Shown here: positions 4,845 to 40,460 of the stretch, piece after piece
Position numbering within the stretch: position 1 is the stretch's first letter
Layout of the letters: each line of letters starts with the position of its first letter
Translations under genes and position numbers: made by a program
From: a phage
Strand: one strand, 5' to 3'
Sequence record: PZ402301.1
Length of the DNA stretch: 64,000 bases
Notes under the pieces: generated by a model
Databases searched by the model: none
What the model was told of the DNA's origin: nothing
What the model saw: only the letters and a program-made list of their open reading frames with translations

Positions 4845-6045
4845 ATTTTGTAATAATGTCAAACTGTTCTTTAAAGCAGAAGCTTGAATCTTGATGCTGA
4901 TACAAAAATTCATAAGCTTTTTCGCGTTCACGGTCATAAAGAGCTCGGTCAGATGACAGTTCTTTAATACGCTCAAATGTTGATTCCATGTCATTTTCAT
5001 CAAACCAAACGATACCGCTATCATGAGAAATTAACGGAGTATTATCAACACGGAATTTTAAATTTTCGCCAGTAGATTTCCAAAATACTGGAATTGTTCC
5101 ACATGCACCAAGCTCGAGATGAGTGTATTCTAAAGAACGTTGCAGATATTTTTTGTCCAACTTGCTCAGCTGATAACCAAATCCGGATTTACTCATGCGT
5201 TCAAGCATTTCGCTATTTACATAACGGTCAAGAATTTGCGTCGGCAAATTAGGAGCAATTTTAATTTGGTCTACTTGATGAAGACGATAATACTCGTATG
5301 GAATTCCTTTTTCTTTAATAGGAATGAACGCTGGAGAACGTTCCAGACCTTCCATAATAGTACTTAGTCCTGCAGGTTTAAGATGTTTTTCGTGAAAATC
5401 AAACATCTGATAAAAGCCTTTCCATGTAGTAGTACGACCAATCCAACGGTTGATATTCATGTTAATTTCAGAAACATCTTTCCAGTAGGTTGATCGAACT
5501 TTCGCAATATCCATAGGAGGCTGGAAGTTATATACGGTCGGTGCTTCTTCAATATCATCAAACAAAGAAACTGTTTCTGGATACCATTCTTTCATTAAAA
5601 CTTTATTAAAATCACCATTATCAGAATGGCTAAAAATAACATCAGCTCGACGAACAGTTTCTTCTAATCCCAAATTTCGGCGTAAAGAAAGAGAAGAATG
5701 GTCATGCTGATAAACTACAACACGAACCGAAGGTTTAATGTTATCAATAATTTTTTTATAGTTATTAATCGTGTCTTCTTCGACTGAAGTAGCAGGAACT
5801 GAATTGATAATTAGAATATCACAATCATTTACCAGCTTAAGGGTTTTATCGTATTCTTTTGCCAATAAAACCGGAATTGAAAATGACTTATAATCATGTG
5901 CGCAATTACGAGTAAAAGATTTATCTTTAGCATAAACCAAAGTTACTTCATGACCATTTTTAATAAACCAATCACGCTGCTCAAGAGAAAATTTAGTTAC
6001 ACCACAACCTTCAAGACCTCGAGCCATAAAAATGCATACTTTCAT
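4843..6045 (-). CDS. a-gt: DNA alpha-glucosyltransferase (400 aa)
   Basis: 400-aa ORF MKVCIFMARGLEGCGVTKFSLEQRDWFIKNGHEVTLVYAKDKSF... matching T4 AGT closely as recalled. Confidence 0.9.
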   Translation of the reverse strand: MKVCIFMARGLEGCGVTKFSLEQRDWFIKNGHEVTLVYAKDKSFTRNCAHDYKSFSIPVLLAKEYDKTLKLVNDCDILIINSVPATSVEEDTINNYKKIIDNIKPSVRVVVYQHDHSSLSLRRNLGLEETVRRADVIFSHSDNGDFNKVLMKEWYPETVSLFDDIEEAPTVYNFQPPMDIAKVRSTYWKDVSEINMNINRWIGRTTTWKGFYQMFDFHEKHLKPAGLSTIMEGLERSPAFIPIKEKGIPYEYYRLHQVDQIKIAPNLPTQILDRYVNSEMLERMSKSGFGYQLSKLDKKYLQRSLEYTHLELGACGTIPVFWKSTGENLKFRVDNTPLISHDSGIVWFDENDMESTFERIKELSSDRALYDREREKAYEFLYQHQDSSFCFKEQFDIITK

Positions 6046-6097
6046 TTAATATCCTCATTGTTTTGGTTTATTTTACCAAAAAAATTTATAAAGCAAT

Positions 6098-6117
6098 ATA
6101 GGAGCCGAGGCTCCTAT
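6098..6117 (-). terminator. stem-loop ATAGGAGCC-GAG-GCTCCTAT, terminator-like
   Basis: perfect inverted repeat in intergenic region upstream of a-gt. Confidence 0.4.
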
Positions 6118-6290
6118 CCACATAATACGCCATACAGAGGCTCATTAGAGCTTCTAAATTTTATACGCTTATATGTTATAGTTCCTTCTGCTTTAGCTTT
6201 ATCGTGAGCCTCTTTAAAGCGTCTCATCATTTCTACTTTAGAGGAACGAATTTTATTATAATCTATTTCAGAAGTCTGGGTGTTCATCTT

Positions 6291-6497
6291 TCACAGTTGC
6301 CACCATTTTTTGACTTGATAGGAATCAACCCACACTTTCATATTAGGGTCTGCTCTTACAATAGGAGGATTAACTTCTTTGATTGAACTATCATGGTATT
6401 CTTTTTCAGAAATTTTCACGCAAAGATGACCATTCAAAGATTCAGTAAATCCTGCATTAATTTTAAGACGCTTGAATTTTACGTGTGTAAGCATCAA
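6291..6497 (-). CDS. hypothetical protein (68 aa)
   Basis: ORF only; overlaps neighbouring ORF. Confidence 0.3.
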   Translation of the reverse strand: MMLTHVKFKRLKINAGFTESLNGHLCVKISEKEYHDSSIKEVNPPIVRADPNMKVWVDSYQVKKWWQL

Positions 6498-6780
6498 TCA
6501 TATCCTCAATCTGCGATCTAGTAGTCTTCCAAAGAATACTAATGAGTTCATCGTTATATGGCTGTTTTAGAATATCCCGACTTTTCTTGATAGCATATTC
6601 GTATTGAGCAAAATTATTGTTTTCAGCTGCAATCTGAGCGTGTTTATAAAGACGGTTCAGTTCGCGTTTATTTTTAGACAATAACTTATTTGCTTTTCTT
6701 TCTGCTTCAAGACGGTTCTTTTCTTCAATAGAAGAAATAAGCTTTTCCACTTCATCATTAATTTCGGGTTTATCAGTCAT
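6463..6780 (-). CDS. hypothetical protein (105 aa, charged/coiled-coil)
   Basis: ORF only, compact early-gene arrangement. Confidence 0.45.
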   Translation of the reverse strand: MTDKPEINDEVEKLISSIEEKNRLEAERKANKLLSKNKRELNRLYKHAQIAAENNNFAQYEYAIKKSRDILKQPYNDELISILWKTTRSQIEDMIDAYTRKIQAS

Positions 6781-6781
6781 A

Positions 6782-7000
6782 TTATTTCTCTAATATAAAA
6801 TAAAAATCATCATCTGTTAAATGATACCGATAGTTTAATTCTACACCATTAGATTTAAAAGCGGTATCATACGGATTTTCTGGATCAATATCAATGTCAA
6901 GAGCTAAAACTTCCCTGAGATACATTTTAAGTAAATAGGGAATAGCTTCAACTTCAGGTATTTCTTCCAAGAATCCGGAGAGGTTAATCGTTAGCCTCAT
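6782..7000 (-). CDS. hypothetical protein (72 aa)
   Basis: ORF packed tail-to-head with gene 55. Confidence 0.45.
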
Positions 7001-7541
7001 ATAAAAAATCCAAACTAGGAGAATCGTCTACAACACTTTTCTTTTCAGCCCCTGGTGTTCTATAGGTTGATTCTTCGTAATGCGTCATTTTATCGTAGAT
7101 GTCTTGAATAAAAGTTTCATCTACTAACGCAACCATATCGTCGTCACGACTGTCATAGACATTGTGAACGAAGTAACTATATTTCTTTGCAACTTCCTTA
7201 CGTTCTTTTTTAATACGTTGGACGAATGCATTAAAACAAGCTTGAGTTATATATGCATGTGGGTTTTTATATTTCGTTTCATCAAAATTATGAAGCCCCT
7301 TAATAGAAGCTTCTATGCCATCTGCAATCATTTCTTGTTTCCAAGACTGGGTATATCCTGAAAAGTTGAAACGTTTAGATAAGCCTTCTGCAATAAGCAT
7401 AATGGCTAATCCGATAGTATCATTCTGACGAACTACTTTATTTGGGTCTTTATTATTTGCTAATTCTGTTTTCCAATCAATAATAGCTTGTAAAAGCTCT
7501 TTATTGTTTACGTAATTATATTTAGGCTTAGTTTCTGACAT
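6984..7541 (-). CDS. 55: late transcription sigma factor gp55
   Basis: ORF contains [31 protein letters not shown]... matching T4 gp55; start placed at the internal Met giving 185 aa. Confidence 0.9.
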
Positions 7542-7619
7542 TTTCACCTCTTAGCTCAATTCATAGATCTATTATATCATAATATTTGAAGATCTATCTT
7601 AAAGCATAGAGGATATCAG

Positions 7620-7889
7620 TTATCTAAGTAAACAGTATGCTTGGAACACTTTCTCCATCATCTTTTTAAATTCATGAATATCTATGTAATGACTAGTTAA
7701 ATCAGCATGATATAAAAAGTCTAAAAACTTTTCATGTGTGCTAACATATTCGCTTTCATTTAATTCAGAAACATGGCTTTCCCAATATCCAACACCAGTC
7801 TTATTTGGGAAAAATGAAATTTTCATATATTGGTCAACATAGAAAATTCCATAATTTTCAATAGTAATAGAAATATTAATAAATTTCAT
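7620..7889 (-). CDS. hypothetical protein (89 aa)
   Basis: ORF in 55-nrdH interval. Confidence 0.4.
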   Translation of the reverse strand: MKFINISITIENYGIFYVDQYMKISFFPNKTGVGYWESHVSELNESEYVSTHEKFLDFLYHADLTSHYIDIHEFKKMMEKVFQAYCLLR

Positions 7890-8101
7890 GCATTCATCAA
7901 CTTAGCCGCTTCAAGAGCTGCATCTAGTGAATCAAATTGGTCAACGTATTCAATCAATTCGCCATAATTAGCATATAACCACCATTGGCTAAATTCATAC
8001 TCAAGGATGAATCCATTTCCTTCAATTTGAGTTAAACCACTGCCGTTTGTATTTACTTCATATCCGGCAAGACGCAAATCGTTAATAAGAGCTTCGTTCA
8101 T
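7886..8101 (-). CDS. hypothetical protein (71 aa)
   Basis: ORF, stop-start overlap with neighbour. Confidence 0.4.
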   Translation of the reverse strand: MNEALINDLRLAGYEVNTNGSGLTQIEGNGFILEYEFSQWWLYANYGELIEYVDQFDSLDAALEAAKLMNA

Positions 8102-8103
8102 AA

Positions 8104-8430
8104 TTATGCCTTAGTAATTTTCAGGTCAGCAAATTTTTTCTTGCGTTGATTTTTCATACGACGAATAGTTTTATCAGAAATTTCATGCTTTTGATAAGCT
8201 TTAGATTCTACGCCAAAAGCTTTAACATCAAATTCAGACAAGATATATTGAACCAACAATTCGCGGATAGTATTTCGTCCAATTTTCTGATCATTCTGTT
8301 TCATCATCTGATGAAGCTCTTTTTCCCATTTATCCAAAATTTGAGGAGTTACAATATCGCCTTTTTCTAGCAAAGAAACTACTTTATCATATGCGTAAGA
8401 ATTGATGGCGTTTTTAATTTGAATAGTCAT
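8104..8430 (-). CDS. hypothetical protein (108 aa, basic C-terminus)
   Basis: ORF only. Confidence 0.45.
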   Translation of the reverse strand: MTIQIKNAINSYAYDKVVSLLEKGDIVTPQILDKWEKELHQMMKQNDQKIGRNTIRELLVQYILSEFDVKAFGVESKAYQKHEISDKTIRRMKNQRKKKFADLKITKA

Positions 8431-9445: not shown

Positions 9446-9769
9446 TTAGTCTTCTATGATATCTCTATCATATCCAAGTGAAATGAGAGTTTCTTTGAAG
9501 TGTTTAATGTTCTTTTGTCTAGAATCATTGATGAAAATGACTGGATAACGAATGTTAAGAGATGTGAATCCAGCGCGTTTAGCAAGAGATACAATCAGTG
9601 GACGATCATACTCAATCTTACCATTATTTGTAAGAACTTTATAGAAAGTAAAAGGAGCATTGAGCTCCTTTAGAAGTTTTGTAACTGATTGACATCCAGG
9701 ACAACGACCTACTTCTTCGGGGATGCCATAGATTTCAATCTTATTCTTTAAGTTCGAGTTTTGTTCCAC
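9446..9769 (-). CDS. nrdH: glutaredoxin-like protein (NrdH-like), CPGC active site; start uncertain (possibly GTG)
   Basis: CxxC motif GRCPGCQ in thioredoxin-fold-like context; located upstream of nrdG/nrdD as in T4. Confidence 0.5.
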   Translation of the reverse strand: MEQNSNLKNKIEIYGIPEEVGRCPGCQSVTKLLKELNAPFTFYKVLTNNGKIEYDRPLIVSLAKRAGFTSLNIRYPVIFINDSRQKNIKHFKETLISLGYDRDIIED

Positions 9770-10052
9770 GAGAAATAATTCCTTGATAAGCCCAGTATGG
9801 CGGGTTAACAGAATCATCGCCAGAATTTTCTTCAGGAAAATAAACCTGGATAACAAATCCAGATGCATCAAAGGTAAAATAAACCGTAGGTAATTCACCT
9901 AACAATTCAGCACGGTTATTAATTTCTTCGAGTTCTCGTTCTCGTCCAGCCCAAAAACTAGGATTTAGACTACATTCATAAAAATAATAGTCATTACCGA
10001 ACATATCAAAACCCTTCCAACTCTCTACCACGTACCGCTCAAAACTAATCAT
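9741..10052 (-). CDS. hypothetical protein (103 aa)
   Basis: ORF only. Confidence 0.4.
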   Translation of the reverse strand: MISFERYVVESWKGFDMFGNDYYFYECSLNPSFWAGRERELEEINNRAELLGELPTVYFTFDASGFVIQVYFPEENSGDDSVNPPYWAYQGIISRGTKLELKE

Positions 10053-10054
10053 AA

Positions 10055-10294
10055 TTAAGCCTTTTTATCAAGAACCGCATTCAGTTTGTTAGTAATTTTA
10101 TCCAGACGCTCATTGAATTCGCTAGAAGATAAGCCTTTTTCTGGAGAAATCAAACTAATCACGAAAAATATAGCAATAAAAGGAATAAGAAAAATAGCTC
10201 CAACTGCCATAAACAAAAAGAATGTTACAGTTGTAAGAAAATCAGCTAAACCTTTACGAAATTTATACATATTTACCCTTAATTGATTAACCAA
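10055..10294 (-). CDS. small membrane protein (79 aa)
   Basis: hydrophobic segment LADFLTTVTFFLFMAVGAIFLIPFIAIFFVISLI. Confidence 0.45.
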   Translation of the reverse strand: MVNQLRVNMYKFRKGLADFLTTVTFFLFMAVGAIFLIPFIAIFFVISLISPEKGLSSSEFNERLDKITNKLNAVLDKKA

Positions 10295-10384: not shown

Positions 10385-10855
10385 TTAATCATGTTTCCAC
10401 ACCCCATCGGTATTTGACCAAAGTCGCTGATTATCTGATCCTCGCCACAGCTTTTTGGTCGGAAGATTTTTCTCATACTTCCCATCAATAATAACATCAA
10501 CATATTTAAGCATTTCTAGTTGTTTAATATCTTCAAACTTATATCCTGTCCACAACCAAATGCTTTTATTGGGATAAAGATTTTTTACTGTTTGAACAAT
10601 GCAATGAACAACATCTCGGTTATCAGGATAGAGAGGGTCTCCTCCAGTTATAGTTAATCCTTCTATATAATCATTATTCAAACATTCAATTAATTGTTCT
10701 AGTGTTTCACCAGTGAATGGAACACCATTTCTAGCATTCCATGTTGATTTATTATAACACCCTTCGCATTTATGCAAACAACCTGTAACGAAAAGAACGA
10801 CCCTGCATCCAGGGCCATTCACAAAATCGCAGGGATAAAATCTATCGTAATTCAT
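10385..10855 (-). CDS. nrdG: anaerobic ribonucleotide reductase activating protein NrdG (radical SAM, 156 aa)
   Basis: Cys cluster CRVVLFVTGCLHKCEGC typical of NrdG activase; adjacent to nrdD; length equals T4 NrdG. Confidence 0.9.
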   Translation of the reverse strand: MNYDRFYPCDFVNGPGCRVVLFVTGCLHKCEGCYNKSTWNARNGVPFTGETLEQLIECLNNDYIEGLTITGGDPLYPDNRDVVHCIVQTVKNLYPNKSIWLWTGYKFEDIKQLEMLKYVDVIIDGKYEKNLPTKKLWRGSDNQRLWSNTDGVWKHD

Positions 10856-12746
10856 TGGTGTTTAACCCTATGCATGATTTCTTTATTTTTGCCAAGATTA
10901 AATCCGCGCTCGTTCGGATTTCCCAAATAACCGCAAGTTCTTCTTATGGTGTTCATCTTTTTAGGATCAGTTTCTCCACAAATAGAACAAACAAATCCGT
11001 TTTCAGTAGGAGTCATTTCATGGGTACTTCCGCATGTAAAACATTTATCTACTGGCATATTAACACCAAAATAATCTAAATGTTGTGCAGCATAATCCCA
11101 TACAGCCTCAAGACCTTTTAGGTTATTTTTCATATCAGGAAGTTCAACATAAGAAATGTGACCACCTGTCGCAATGAAATGATACGGAGCTTCGCGAGAA
11201 ATCTTTTCAAACGGAGTAATATTTTCTTCTACTGAAACGTGGAAACTGTTAGTATACCAGCCTTTATCGGTAACATCTTTTACACTTCCATATTTTTCGG
11301 TATCAAGTTTACAGAAGCGATAGCACAGGTTTTCAGCAGGAGTAGAATATAAGCTAAAAGCAAAACCAGTTCTTTCAGTCCATTGTTTAAGATGAATATT
11401 CATTTTAGTTAAAATTTCTTGTCCAATATCACGACCGACAAGAATATTCAATTCGTGAATACCAATGTATCCTAGGGACACTGAACTTCTACCGTTTTTA
11501 AATAACTCAATTATATCGTCATCAGGTTTAAGACGAACCCCGAATGCACCTTCTTGATAAAGAATAGGAGCAACAGTAGCTTTAACCCCTTTTAAGGAAC
11601 TAATTCTACACATCAAAGCTTCAAAACATAAATCCATTCGCTCATTGAACAATTCAGTAAATTTCTGTTCATTGAACTGTGTTCCAATATAAGAATCTAA
11701 CGCAATACGAGGAAGATTCAGTGTTACAACACCAAGATTATTACGTCCATCAAGAATTTCATTACCAGTCGAATCTTTCCATACGCCCAAGAAACTACGA
11801 CAACCCATTGGAGAAACAGGAATAGATGAACCGGTGATAGCTTTATTGTTCTTAGCCGAAATGATGTCAGGATACATTCTTTTACTTGCACACTCTAGAG
11901 CAAGCTGCTTAATATCATAGTTCGGATCGTCTTTATAAAGATTAACACCTTCTTCAACGAACATAACAAGTTTAGGGAAAATAGGAGTTATCCCGTCACG
12001 ACCAAGGCCTTTAATACGATTTTTCAGAATTGCTTTCTGAATCATTCGTTCAGTCCAGTCAGTTCCCATGCCAAATGTAATTGTTACAAAAGGCGTTTGT
12101 CCGTTTGAACTAAAGAGAGTATTTATTCAGTCCAGTCAGTTCCCATGCCAAATGTAATTGTTACAAAAGGCGTTTGTCCGTTTGAACTAAAGAGAGTATT
12201 TAGTTCATATTCATAAGCTTGGAATGCATCGTATACGTCTTTTTCTGTTTTAGATTGGGCATAATTCAACGCATCAGCGATTTGCCATTTTTCTGCATCC
12301 TCAATATGTTTTGCATAGGTGCGTTTAACATAAGGAGAAAGGACTTTATCTACATTCGCAAAAGTCGTTCCACCATATTGATGGGAAGCAACCTGTGCAG
12401 TAATTTGTGCCATAATTGCAGTAGCAACACCGATTGATTTAGGAGTTTCAATCTGTGCATTACCGAGCTTAAATCCGTTCTCAAGCATTCCTTTTAAATC
12501 TACTAAACAGCAATTAGTAAATGGAAGAGCAGGGGAATAATCAATATCATGGAAATGAATAATTCCGCTTTCATGCGCTTTCATAATAAAAGACGGGACC
12601 ATATTTTTGGCAATGTGTTTAGACACAATACCAGCCATAAGGTCCCGTTGAGTTGGAAAAACACGAGAATCTTTATTAGCATTCTCGTTTAAAAGGTCTT
12701 TATTAGTTTTATGAATCAATCCTTCAATTTCTTTTTCAATTGTCAT
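10852..12746 (-). pseudogene. nrdD: anaerobic ribonucleoside-triphosphate reductase NrdD, disrupted by a 77-bp tandem duplication (split into 207-aa N-terminal and 405-aa C-terminal ORFs)
   Basis: Two ORFs (12123..12746 and 10852..12069) both contain GMGTDWTE; removing one 77-bp copy restores a single 605-aa reading frame equal to T4 NrdD length; C-terminus carries glycyl-radical motif RRTCGYLG and a Cys-rich zinc ribbon. Confidence 0.85.
12049..12202. repeat. perfect direct tandem duplication, 2 x 77 bp (12049..12125 and 12126..12202)
   Basis: identical 77-nt units TTCAGTCCAGTCAGTTCCCATGCCAAATGTAATTGTTACAAAAGGCGTTTGTCCGTTTGAACTAAAGAGAGTATTTA read directly in the sequence. Confidence 0.97.
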
Positions 12747-13216
12747 TTTAAACTCTTTCTAAGCTGCTTCTTAAATGAAGCTATTAATTGTGTTTTAGTG
12801 TCAGATTCATTATATTCAAATCCTCTTTGAAGCATCTCAGCCATCATTTCCTCTTTTCCTAAACGAGAAAATTCCTTTGATTTATCTCCAACGAAGTTAG
12901 GGTGAATATTATTTTGGGTGTAATCGGATTTTAAATAAGTAAGTAAATTTTCTAGCCATTCAAGATAATCAACACCTTGTCCCTTTAAGCCAGAACGATT
13001 GAATTTATGCTTCATTTGACCTTCTGCAGCATTACAGAGATTACATAGCAACCCACGTACCTTTCCTGCTTTTGGTCCATTTAATTCATGGTCATGGTCA
13101 AGGTGATTAGCTTGAACATCAGGATTTAGTTCTCGTTGGCAAATTAAGCATTTACCGTTTTGTGCATCATAAAATTTCTGTTTTTCTTCTTTGTATAATT
13201 TGCCAGTCAATAACAT
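12743..13216 (-). CDS. 49: endonuclease VII (Holliday junction resolvase gp49, 157 aa)
   Basis: 157-aa ORF with zinc-binding CLICQ...HLDHDH...CNLCN motifs; same length and position as T4 gp49. Confidence 0.9.
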   Translation of the reverse strand: MLLTGKLYKEEKQKFYDAQNGKCLICQRELNPDVQANHLDHDHELNGPKAGKVRGLLCNLCNAAEGQMKHKFNRSGLKGQGVDYLEWLENLLTYLKSDYTQNNIHPNFVGDKSKEFSRLGKEEMMAEMLQRGFEYNESDTKTQLIASFKKQLRKSLK

Positions 13217-13265
13217 AATAAAACCCTTACCTTGAATAGATAAGGGTATTTATTATTTTCAAGTA

Positions 13266-13835: not shown

Positions 13836-14156
13836 TTATAGCGTAATCCATTCTCGTATTGTCTGAGTTACTACACGTTCACGGGGCTCGACTAGTTCAA
13901 CAGTCGGAACTGCATAATACCAGTCAGAATGGTAAGAACCTGAGCGAGATTCATTTACGGAAACATGTACATTATGTTTCGGACTAAAATAAACGCACTG
14001 CCGATATTGGCATTTGCCATCTTGTACCCAATCTTCTATTTCGACAGGTTTAAGATAATCCGAAAAATCGAAATCATAATTTTCTGAAAATGCATCATGG
14101 TCTTCGATGATTTCACTCAGAACTGCATCAACATCTAATTTATTTTCAATAGTCAT
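13836..14156 (-). CDS. hypothetical protein (106 aa)
   Basis: ORF only (49.x-like position). Confidence 0.4.
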   Translation of the reverse strand: MTIENKLDVDAVLSEIIEDHDAFSENYDFDFSDYLKPVEIEDWVQDGKCQYRQCVYFSPKHNVHVSVNESRSGSYHSDWYYAVPTVELVEPRERVVTQTIREWITL

Positions 14157-37916: not shown

Positions 37917-38228
37917 AAGCCTTGCGGCAACCTTGTCGGGGTTCCACCTGCTAAGGCAAGTGTTTGTACGAAACGCCGGGATTCGAACCCGGTTATTAAG
38001 CAGTTGACGCTACTCAATATTTTTTAAAAGGCCATATCTCGACCATATCCGAACGTTCCGTCAAAAACGCTACTCGGCTTACGGCAAAGATATTTCCTCG
38101 AATCGATAATTCTGTGCGCCGTTTCTGCTGTGATGTAAGGGGATATTAACAAATCGTAAAGATTTATTAAGACCAGTCCTTACGCAGGGAACATCAGTCC
38201 GACGACTTACCGGTAGCGACCCGGTTTC
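37917..38228 (-). ncRNA. candidate structured stable RNA region with tRNA-like T-arm (possible rnaC/rnaD-type species)
   Basis: about 310 nt without ORF next to tRNA cluster; minus-sense CCGGGTTCGAATCCCGG T-arm-like hairpin near 37974..37990; no complete tRNA cloverleaf found by eye. Confidence 0.25.
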
Positions 38229-38579
38229 TTAGTATTCTTTTAAAGCATCAACCTGTTCACGACGTTTACGCCATAAATCAATTACTTCATGCACAGATTC
38301 AGCATTTCGAATTGGACGGCATTTATATAAAGACTTATGATTTTGATATTGTGTAGATAACGGAATTTTATCTAAAAGGTCTTTACGTTCAAAATATTCG
38401 TAACCATCTAAACCAAATGAACGATTTTTGAGAAATTGCCAATGACCATATTCGTTTTCGACATAAACATAATCTGCATGCTGATAAAGTAAATTAATTA
38501 CACGTTCAGAAATAACAGTGTCATTATGATTAAAATAGAATGTTAAATCATGAACTACTAAATAAACATTACCTTTCAT
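38229..38579 (-). CDS. hypothetical protein (116 aa)
   Basis: ORF directly downstream of tRNA-Arg. Confidence 0.5.
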   Translation of the reverse strand: MKGNVYLVVHDLTFYFNHNDTVISERVINLLYQHADYVYVENEYGHWQFLKNRSFGLDGYEYFERKDLLDKIPLSTQYQNHKSLYKCRPIRNAESVHEVIDLWRKRREQVDALKEY

Positions 38580-38597
38580 ATTTTCCTCACTTATAAT

Positions 38598-38673
38598 TGG
38601 TCGAGGCAGTAGGGATCGAACCTACGACCTAGGACTTAGAAGGTCCTTGCTCTTCCTTCTGAGCTATGCCTCG
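38598..38673 (-). tRNA. tRNA-Arg (anticodon UCU)
   Basis: cloverleaf: acceptor CGAGGCA/TGCCTCG, anticodon loop CTTCTAA, T-arm GTAGG-TTCGATC-CCTAC, encoded CCA. Confidence 0.85.
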
Positions 38674-38677
38674 GATT

Positions 38678-38752
38678 TGGCGGACATGCATGGATTCGAA
38701 CCATGGACCAATTGATTAACAGTCAACTGCTCTACCACTGAGCTACACATCC
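38678..38752 (-). tRNA. tRNA-Asn (anticodon GUU)
   Basis: cloverleaf with D-arm GCTC-AGTGGTA-GAGC, anticodon loop CTGTTAA, T-loop TTCGAAT, encoded CCA. Confidence 0.7.
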
Positions 38753-38756
38753 AAAT

Positions 38757-38843
38757 TGGTGGGGAGTGATGGAGTCGAACCACCCGAGTCGCAATGACAA
38801 TGGATTTACAGTCCACACCGCTACCTCTACGGGATAACTCCCC
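38757..38843 (-). tRNA. tRNA-Tyr (anticodon GUA), long variable arm
   Basis: anticodon stem-loop TGGA-CTGTAAA-TCCA, long variable arm, T-loop TTCGACT, encoded CCA. Confidence 0.7.
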
Positions 38844-38856
38844 TTAATTCTTAATT

Positions 38857-38931
38857 TGGTGGCCCTGGGTGGAATTGAACCACCATCTGGCGATTATGAG
38901 TCGCTTGCTTGAACCTTCCAGCTACAGGGCC
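38857..38931 (-). tRNA. tRNA with CAU anticodon (Ile-lysidine type or Met)
   Basis: acceptor GGCCCTG/CAGGGCC, anticodon loop CTCATAA, T-arm GGTGG-TTCAATT-CCACC, encoded CCA. Confidence 0.75.
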
Positions 38932-38939
38932 AAATTTTC

Positions 38940-39425
38940 TTATTTTATGTAATATTTATTTAAAAACTTTCTAGCTTGAGTATGGCTAACATTTATAGCG
39001 TTTGCATAATTTTTAATAAAACCTCGTTCATCCATATTAAAATTTTCTAATATTTTTAATCGTCTAGTTATCTCATCTTGACTTAAGGTACTTGCATTAT
39101 TTTTAGAAATTTTTTCTAAGGACTGCGCCGAGTGTTTTCGACCATTAAAATTAAAATTTTTAGATTTTGGAGGAAATCTAGCATTTAGTCTCGCATCTTT
39201 TGTATTTTGATTATTAGTTGCGCAATATATGTTATTTAATGAATATGGTCCTTTATCGCCGAAACGGCACATGCAATATTCATGACCCTTTCTTCCACGC
39301 TTATCATAATTTCCCGTTGATTTCCACCAATGCAGCCATTCATCAAAAGTTAAATTCCATTCAATGTTTCTACGTATAGCAGAATTCCGCTGAGAAATAT
39401 ATTTTGCATAATCTTCTTTCATCAC
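38940..39425 (-). CDS. putative HNH-type homing endonuclease (161 aa) inserted in tRNA cluster
   Basis: His/Asn-rich core GHEYCMCRFGDKGPYSLNNIYCATNNQN; C-terminal SHTQA helix motif shared with the neighbouring GIY-YIG enzyme. Confidence 0.45.
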   Translation of the reverse strand: MMKEDYAKYISQRNSAIRRNIEWNLTFDEWLHWWKSTGNYDKRGRKGHEYCMCRFGDKGPYSLNNIYCATNNQNTKDARLNARFPPKSKNFNFNGRKHSAQSLEKISKNNASTLSQDEITRRLKILENFNMDERGFIKNYANAINVSHTQARKFLNKYYIK

Positions 39426-39469
39426 AAATTTCTCTACTTATTCAATACACTGAGCTAAATCAGCAAAAC

Positions 39470-39559
39470 TGGCGGAGGCGATAGGATTTGAACCTATGAG
39501 TCGCCGGAGCGACTGCCGGTTTTCAAGACCGGTGCATTAAACCACTCTGCCACGCCTCC
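39470..39559 (-). tRNA. tRNA-Ser (anticodon UGA), long variable arm
   Basis: acceptor GGAGGCG/CGCCTCC, anticodon loop CTTGAAA, long variable arm, T-loop TTCAAAT, encoded CCA. Confidence 0.85.
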
Positions 39560-39565
39560 AAATAT

Positions 39566-40216
39566 TTATATACTGTTAATTTGATTTAGAATTCTTTTTG
39601 CTTGAGTATGACTTACTCCAATATGCTTAGCATATTTATATAATTCACCACGCTTAGAAAAATCATATAATTTAGAAATTTCTATTCTTCTTTTTCTTTC
39701 ATCCGCAGAAACTTTTGCTTCGTTTGCTTTTGCTATTTTACGTTTAGCTTCTTGAGAATGAGTTTTACCAGCAAAGCCATTCTTCATTAATCCATTTGAA
39801 GACCATCCTTTTAATTTTCCATTAGAATGAGCCTTTTTAACACCCAATGAAATTAATTCGCGTTGCTGATCTGTCATAGGATAATTATTTATATGGTCCC
39901 ATCCACCTTCACCGCCAAGTTTTAAATTATACACATCTGGTCTATTTAAAAACTCTTCTGTGACAATATTTTTCTCGGCTTCAAGCATAGATTCTTTATC
40001 ATCAAAATACTCTAATATTTCTTTAGAGAAATTTTCTATACCATACTTGTCTTGGGCTCTTTTTAATAATTTACCAGAACCCATATATCCATCATCTAAA
40101 TTTTCGGTAGAATGCACACCAATATAAATTTTATTATTAATTTTATTTGTTATTTTATAAAGATAAAAATGCATATCAGTCCCTAATAAAGAACTGAGCG
40201 TCTCACGACGAGTCAT
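39566..40216 (-). CDS. segB: GIY-YIG homing endonuclease (SegB-like, 216 aa) in tRNA cluster
   Basis: GIY-YIG motif FYLYKITNKINNKIYIGV near N-terminus; located between tRNA subclusters as T4 segB. Confidence 0.75.
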   Translation of the reverse strand: MTRRETLSSLLGTDMHFYLYKITNKINNKIYIGVHSTENLDDGYMGSGKLLKRAQDKYGIENFSKEILEYFDDKESMLEAEKNIVTEEFLNRPDVYNLKLGGEGGWDHINNYPMTDQQRELISLGVKKAHSNGKLKGWSSNGLMKNGFAGKTHSQEAKRKIAKANEAKVSADERKRRIEISKLYDFSKRGELYKYAKHIGVSHTQAKRILNQINSI

Positions 40217-40220
40217 AAAT

Positions 40221-40294
<74 letters not shown>

Positions 40295-40299
40295 AAATT

Positions 40300-40386
40300 T
40301 GGTGCGAGAAGTGGGACTCGAACCCACAAGGAAATCATTCCGCAGCATTTTAAGTGCTGTGCCTTTACCAATTTGACCATTCTCGC
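40300..40386 (-). tRNA. tRNA-Leu (anticodon UAA), long variable arm
   Basis: anticodon loop CTTAAAA, long variable arm, T-arm GGGTTCGAGTCCC, encoded CCA. Confidence 0.85.
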
Positions 40387-40388
40387 GC

Positions 40389-40460
40389 TGGGAATAAAGG
40401 ACTTGAACCTTTGCATCTAGCAGTCAAAGTGCTATGCCTTACCAACTTGGCTAATTCCCA
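40389..40460 (-). tRNA. tRNA-Gln (anticodon UUG), 3-prime CCA apparently not encoded
   Basis: acceptor TGGGAAT/ATTCCCA, anticodon loop CTTTGAC, T-loop TTCAAGT; abuts tRNA-Leu. Confidence 0.8.

Follow-up and report, generated by a model that had tools for sequence, protein, structure and literature searches.

The stretch of DNA analysed here (the window: 64,000 nucleotides of sequence record PZ402301.1) belongs to a Tequatrovirus. Many T4-like phages are colinear with it at 96-97% identity, and the closest contigs are about 97% identical to it. On its minus strand, gene 49 (endonuclease VII; 12743..13216) stands intact immediately upstream of nrdD, and downstream the activase gene nrdG (10385..10855), likewise intact and with Fer4_12 and Radical_SAM matches, adjoins nrdD as it does in T4. 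Comparison of window positions 10852-12746 with the corresponding T4 region (5536-8386) reveals two differences in organization: there is no nrdD group I intron with I-TevII here, and mobC, which in T4 lies between nrdG and nrdD, is absent. In the window, nrdG overlaps the nrdD stop codon directly. The feature of concern is that nrdD as written, unlike the T4 gene, breaks off after codon 207 and continues in a second ORF. The 5′ ORF (12123..12746, minus strand) encodes 207 amino acids, NrdD residues 1-207 without an aberrant tail, and matches positions 1-170 of the 562-position Pfam NRDD profile (PF13597; E=1.7e-52). The 3′ ORF (10852..12069, minus strand) encodes 405 amino acids, NrdD residues 201-605, and matches profile positions 172-562 together with the glycyl-radical domain (Gly_radical, PF01228). 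A single PF13597 match is thus divided between the 2 ORFs at profile positions 170 and 172.

What separates the ORFs is a perfect tandem repeat. With gene numbering counted from the first nucleotide of nrdD at window position 12746, minus strand, the unit on the plus-strand coordinates 12126..12202 is the first copy in gene orientation (gene nt 545-621, codons 182-207), and the unit at 12049..12125 is the second, holding the ATG (12069) of the 405-aa ORF. The units are 100% identical and head-to-tail with no filler between them. The run of period-77 identity is exactly 77 nt, so the flanking bases do not prolong the repeat; Tandem Repeats Finder (TRF) reports it as 12048-12207, period 77, 2.1 copies. 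It is the sole perfect tandem duplication with a period between 15 and 2000 in the 64-kb window, and a perfect repeat of this length cannot have arisen by chance. The copy-copy junction lies between 12125 and 12126, where the gene strand passes from ...GGACTGAA to TAAATACTC..., and it is exactly there that a stop is newly formed, ACT GAA being followed by TAA. Deletion of one copy yields an ORF of 1818 nt and 605 aa, colinear with residues 1-605 of T4 NrdD as seen in the crystal structures 1H78 and 1HK8. The restored protein is alike to T4 NrdD (PDB 1H78, 1H79, 1H7A, 1H7B, 1HK8) in its 605 residues, its colinearity, an identity of about 99%, and the presence of the RRTCGYLG glycyl-radical motif; it is also about 99% identical to its relatives, among them the 605-aa NrdD proteins of one very large cluster, and the gene carries no further lesion. 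The original prediction had described two identical 77-nt units within nrdD, a frameshift that leaves a 207-aa and a 405-aa ORF, and the recovery of a frame of 605 aa on removing one unit, and all of this is borne out. It had also placed the octapeptide GMGTDWTE in both ORFs; this is correct for the C-terminus of the 207-aa ORF, whereas the 405-aa ORF begins MGTDWTE, with the leading G missing.

No other sequence that we inspected has this arrangement. Of 50,697 phage records searched, 476 match that stretch, and none of them has the copy-copy junction; nor do IMG/VR or the JGI metagenome contigs contain it. A sibling sequence was sought among E. coli genomes and plasmids with no match, and none of the products of the 207-aa, 405-aa, and 1032-aa ORFs is on record. 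Among the best-matching 40 phage records, nrdD spans 1818 nt in all but two, and those carry a 1-kb group I intron. The closest 23 full-length homologues are all 605 aa, and 6 further genomes have an intact nrdD; in each of the 12 relatives compared as DNA the gene is an uninterrupted 1818 nt. Across the relatives inspected there is no split nrdD: the gene is either a contiguous 605 codons or interrupted by an intron. The comparison with nrdD of related T-even phages, which the original prediction had proposed, therefore finds every one of these genes intact and none with the duplication.

Against the phage HY01, all other indels that are not a multiple of 3 in the first 32 kb of the window are intergenic, and the nrdD repeat is the only frame-breaking lesion in that region. 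Apart from this lesion, several differences in gene content may be recorded. A segment of about 330 nt (9743-10069) is missing from HY01; it accommodates a 103-aa ORF (9741-10052) with no Pfam match, situated between an nrdH-like gene and a small membrane-protein gene upstream of nrdG, and a similar extra ORF of 103-107 aa occurs in some other relatives. Conversely, HY01 has about 166 nt (13842-14007) between its gene 49 and pin, including a 58-aa ORF, that are lacking at window position 13265, a difference that is ordinary T-even mosaic variation. On the minus strand at 37966-40460 there is a tRNA cluster (Arg, Asn, Tyr, Met, Ser, Gly, Leu, Gln), a set that we take to differ from that of T4, and among these tRNAs lie a 216-aa GIY-YIG/NUMOD3 ORF (39566-40216), a SegB-like free-standing homing endonuclease, and a 161-aa ORF (38940-39425) with no Pfam match. 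An odd ARAGORN call at 37966-38061 lacks Rfam support.

Split genes with functional products are known among the ribonucleotide reductase (RNR) and polymerase genes of T4-like phages (PMC2988022), and it is fair to ask whether nrdD is one of them, with NrdD 1-207 and 201-605 assembling into an enzyme or, by analogy with gene 60, with ribosomes hopping from GAA-UAA to a GAA 77 nt downstream. The 207-aa ORF does stop cleanly after E207, at the junction, and the 405-aa ORF begins at M201, a methionine that is rare in the genus. Nearly all Tequatrovirus NrdD genes read GGT ACG (G, T) where the window has GGC ATG (G200, M201; the differing bases are gene nt 600 and 602, window 12145 and 12147, and 12068 and 12070 in the other copy). 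It is thus to the M201 substitution that the 405-aa ORF owes its start codon. Among the records searched, GGC ATG was found only in phage vB_EcoM_WL-3 (MT968995), which shares the T201M codon at the DNA level; M201 also occurs in distant relatives of about 78% identity. In both WL-3 and the distant relatives, however, the methionine sits in an intact 605-aa nrdD gene, which counts against a functional split. Moreover, there is no Shine-Dalgarno-like sequence within 15 nt upstream of the ATG at 12069 (...AACAATTACATTTGGC ATG), and the gap of 53 nt between stop and start consists of duplicated coding sequence. The residues C79, C290, and G580, presumably with the roles they have in T4 NrdD, would be distributed with the first on one fragment and the other two on the second, though they belong to a single barrel.

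The closest precedent, as PMC2988022 reports it from Friedrich et al. 2007, is nrdA of Aeromonas phage Aeh1, a gene-in-pieces RNR split by mobE. In both Aeh1 nrdA and the present nrdD, the gene for an RNR large subunit in a T4-like phage occupies two ORFs, but there the resemblance ends. No homing endonuclease gene lies between the nrdD halves, no translation signals precede the second one, the split is shared by no relative inspected, and 7 duplicated residues are common to both halves. As to bypassing, the take-off and landing codons are indeed matched (GAA-UAA and GAA-CGA), but such a match is automatic in any tandem repeat and carries no weight; folding over the repeat reveals no unusual RNA structure (z=-1.5, with 16 of 200 shuffles folding as well), and a gene 60-type bypass was rejected for want of a stable take-off structure. 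The lack of a Shine-Dalgarno sequence before the internal ATG and the absence of the split from every relative thus weigh against a functional split, and we regard assembly of the two polypeptides or a ribosomal hop as scarcely credible explanations of the locus. If the fragments were expressed from a physically present duplication and reassembled, they would make up a class III RNR whose pieces were born of duplication and not of homing-endonuclease insertion, a notion to which we assign only a very slight chance.

A less exotic proposal is that the duplication is real but recent, having arisen in the phage stock by replication slippage or illegitimate recombination and inactivating nrdD. Phages in aerobic laboratory culture can do without the gene. 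An otherwise intact frame is what would be expected of a very recent event. Tandem duplications do form in T-even phages, as illustrated by the 718-bp tRNA-Tyr/segB tandem repeats of T6 (PMC13096335). Those repeats and the present one are head-to-tail in a T-even genome; however, the former have junction microhomology and, like other known cases, arise under selection, whereas at the copy-copy junction in nrdD the microhomology is 0 nt and the length coincides with an assembler parameter. The nearest thing to a substrate for slippage is a TGAAC pentamer at gene nt 540-544, repeated at 618-622, beside the repeat boundaries. Their spacing of 78 nt misses the 77-nt register of the repeat by one base, and slippage between them predicts a 78-nt, in-frame unit, so that an extra 1-nt deletion would be needed to reach the observed 77. 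We rejected a 78-bp TGAAC slippage followed by such a deletion, as it calls for two or three rare events, and a near-microhomology of this kind is ordinary: of positions drawn at random from the window, 3-6% show a near-miss like the TGAAC pair. The variant in which a real 78-bp duplication was mis-resolved by an assembler fails as well, because k-mers reading ...ATGAA-C-TAAAT... are impossible from that sequence.

The strongest clue to the origin of the repeat lies just outside it. Window position 12203, which directly follows the 12126-12202 copy on the plus strand, is gene nt 544; it is G in 12 of 12 relatives and C only in the window, where it changes codon 182 from valine to leucine (V182L). 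No phage record among 585 gives an 80/80 match across nt 544 with C, and in IMG/VR a 32-mer at this site is matched 0 times with the C allele and 6 times with the G allele. Relative to 24 close 605-aa homologues, the restored NrdD has private substitutions only at V182L, T201M, and A425I. WL-3 and the window differ over gene nt 1-882 only at nt 489 and nt 544, and at nt 489 it is WL-3 that is the odd one out. Positions private to the window relative to 6 relatives make up 0.59% of the region, so that a private base would be expected on one side or the other of the repeat with a probability of about 1.2%. A single duplication event does not predict a private base at the outer boundary of the repeat, where no new junction has been made. 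Taken with a length equal to the SPAdes k, which on this account would be coincidence, and with the fact that the duplication is seen in no second sequence, this tells against a physical duplication. The absent junction microhomology and the coincidence of length in particular disfavour slippage, and we think a genuine recent duplication improbable, though it is the least improbable of the biological explanations.

The location of the repeat invites one more biological explanation. By alignment of the T4 and pSe_SNUABM_01 exon junctions to the window, the equivalent of the T4 nrdD group I intron insertion site falls at 12208..12209 (minus strand), between gene nt 538 and 539, and holds no intron in this phage. 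The repeat begins at +7, 6 nt beyond the site, and spans the position at which I-TevII would be expected to cleave. One might therefore see in the repeat the repair scar of an I-TevII double-strand break in an intron-less nrdD allele. Furthermore, in the first 20 nt past the insertion site (window 12189-12208, gene nt 539-558), the I-TevII target region, there are 7 differences from T4, a pattern that looks like a homing-site variation hotspot. I-TevII, following the 1990 work of Bell-Pedersen and colleagues, is said to cut 13-15 nt downstream of the insertion site. That would place the cut at gene nt 551-553, away from the boundary between nt 544 and 545, and the repeat boundaries thus do not coincide with the cleavage. 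A scar would also require that both ends be extended and then joined without homology, there is no I-TevII gene in the window, and 6 of the 7 differences are common to intron-less relatives with an intact gene, such as HY01, leaving nt 544 alone as private and non-synonymous. We rejected the scar on the grounds that the repeat starts at +7 and not at the reported +13/+15 and that no simple end-joining product fits, and we give it hardly any credence. The coincidence is better read as the variable base of the stock falling within the homing-site patch that is most divergent among T-even phages.

The explanation that we consider highly probable is that the 77-nt duplication is the untrimmed overlap of a contig assembled at k=77 and not a feature of the phage. 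The original prediction had offered an assembly artefact, a slippage mutation, and a functional split without ranking them; the length of 77, the want of microhomology, the rarity of the repeat, and the adjacent private variant now favour the first over the other two. That 77 is the SPAdes k-mer overlap, and that a private variant abuts the repeat, had not been remarked in that prediction. T4-type genomes are circularly permuted, and the largest default k of SPAdes for reads of roughly 150 nt is 77. SPAdes mostly collapses single-SNP bubbles and retains them only at very high coverage. The scheme that we propose runs as follows. The Tequatrovirus genome, presumably permuted like that of T4, would assemble as a cycle for that reason, in a de Bruijn assembler that we infer to have been run at k=77. 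From such a cycle SPAdes would write out a linear contig with one and the same 77-nt k-mer at its start and at its end. The reads most likely contained both a G and a C allele at gene nt 544, which would leave one unresolved bubble in the cycle and cause the contig to begin and end at the closing 77-mer, gene nt 545-621; the original contig would then have started and ended with TTCAGTCC...GTATTTA. At a later step the contig would have been re-opened elsewhere, in accordance with the T4 map convention, with the old end joined to the old start and the k-mer left untrimmed. The product would read nt 543, C, the 77-mer, the 77-mer again, and nt 622, and would present itself as a frameshift in an otherwise intact nrdD.

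The graph logic of this scheme can be followed base by base. In a graph whose vertices are 77-mers, a variable base at position p produces branching vertices at p-77 to p-1 and at p+1 to p+77, and with p at nt 544 the downstream vertex spans nt 545-621, exactly the extent of the duplicated unit. A toy graph (not SPAdes itself) built at k=77 from the single-copy sequence with a G/C polymorphism at nt 544 contains two branching 77-mers and three unitigs, of 63,922, 155, and 155 nt. In restored coordinates, these branching 77-mers are 12049-12125 and 12127-12203; the second branching vertex that the k=77 graph predicts, the 77-mer beyond the variant, corresponds to 12204..12280 of the window as written. 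The path in the toy graph that joins one allele branch to the long unitig carries the duplicated 77-mer at both ends, and when its end is joined untrimmed to its start and the circle is re-opened at the window start, 64,000 of the 64,000 nt of the window are reproduced. Precedent exists for the raw material: SPAdes leaves a 77-nt overlap at both contig ends of circularly permuted phage genomes (PMC9409062), and identical overlaps of 127 bp at contig ends are likewise documented. The nrdD repeat is similar to such terminal overlaps in its length of 77, its perfect identity, the presumably permuted genome, its being the only such repeat in the 64-kb window, and in that the repeated segment is a k-mer vertex beside a variable site. 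It differs in being interior where those stand at both ends of a contig, and for this reason a later rotation or concatenation step has to be supposed; the fact that the window is in the same orientation as, and colinear with, the HY01 and T4 records is consistent with a record that was re-oriented.

An untrimmed overlap accounts together for the length, the perfect identity, the missing microhomology, and the private adjoining base. Three points count against it. First, SPAdes mostly collapses single-SNP bubbles; an untrimmed overlap stands without the bubble, but chance, at about 1%, would then have to account for the adjoining SNP. Second, the repeat is only 6 nt from the intron site, within the I-TevII target region, and a random contig break there would be rare. 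Third, the C at nt 544 itself completes the TGAAC pair 78 nt apart, which could be a hint of real slippage, although near-misses of that sort are, as noted, ordinary. We see a very slight chance, too, that the duplication is not real but the G/C heterogeneity at nt 544 is, in which case it might reflect selection on the homing site.

For the biology of NrdD our analysis offers nothing new; its value lies in the correction of an annotation and in recognising the signature of an error. This signature combines perfect tandem repetition over a length that is also one of the assembler k values (55, 77, 99, or 127) with a junction free of microhomology; in some cases an abutting private variant is added, which marks an unresolved bubble. 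For this phage, the practical lesson is that nrdD very likely encodes an intact protein of 605 aa. If the record were trusted as it stands, nrdD would be listed as a pseudogene or a split gene, and the error would pass into annotation, into pangenome counts, and into what is inferred about the capacity of the phage for anaerobic growth.
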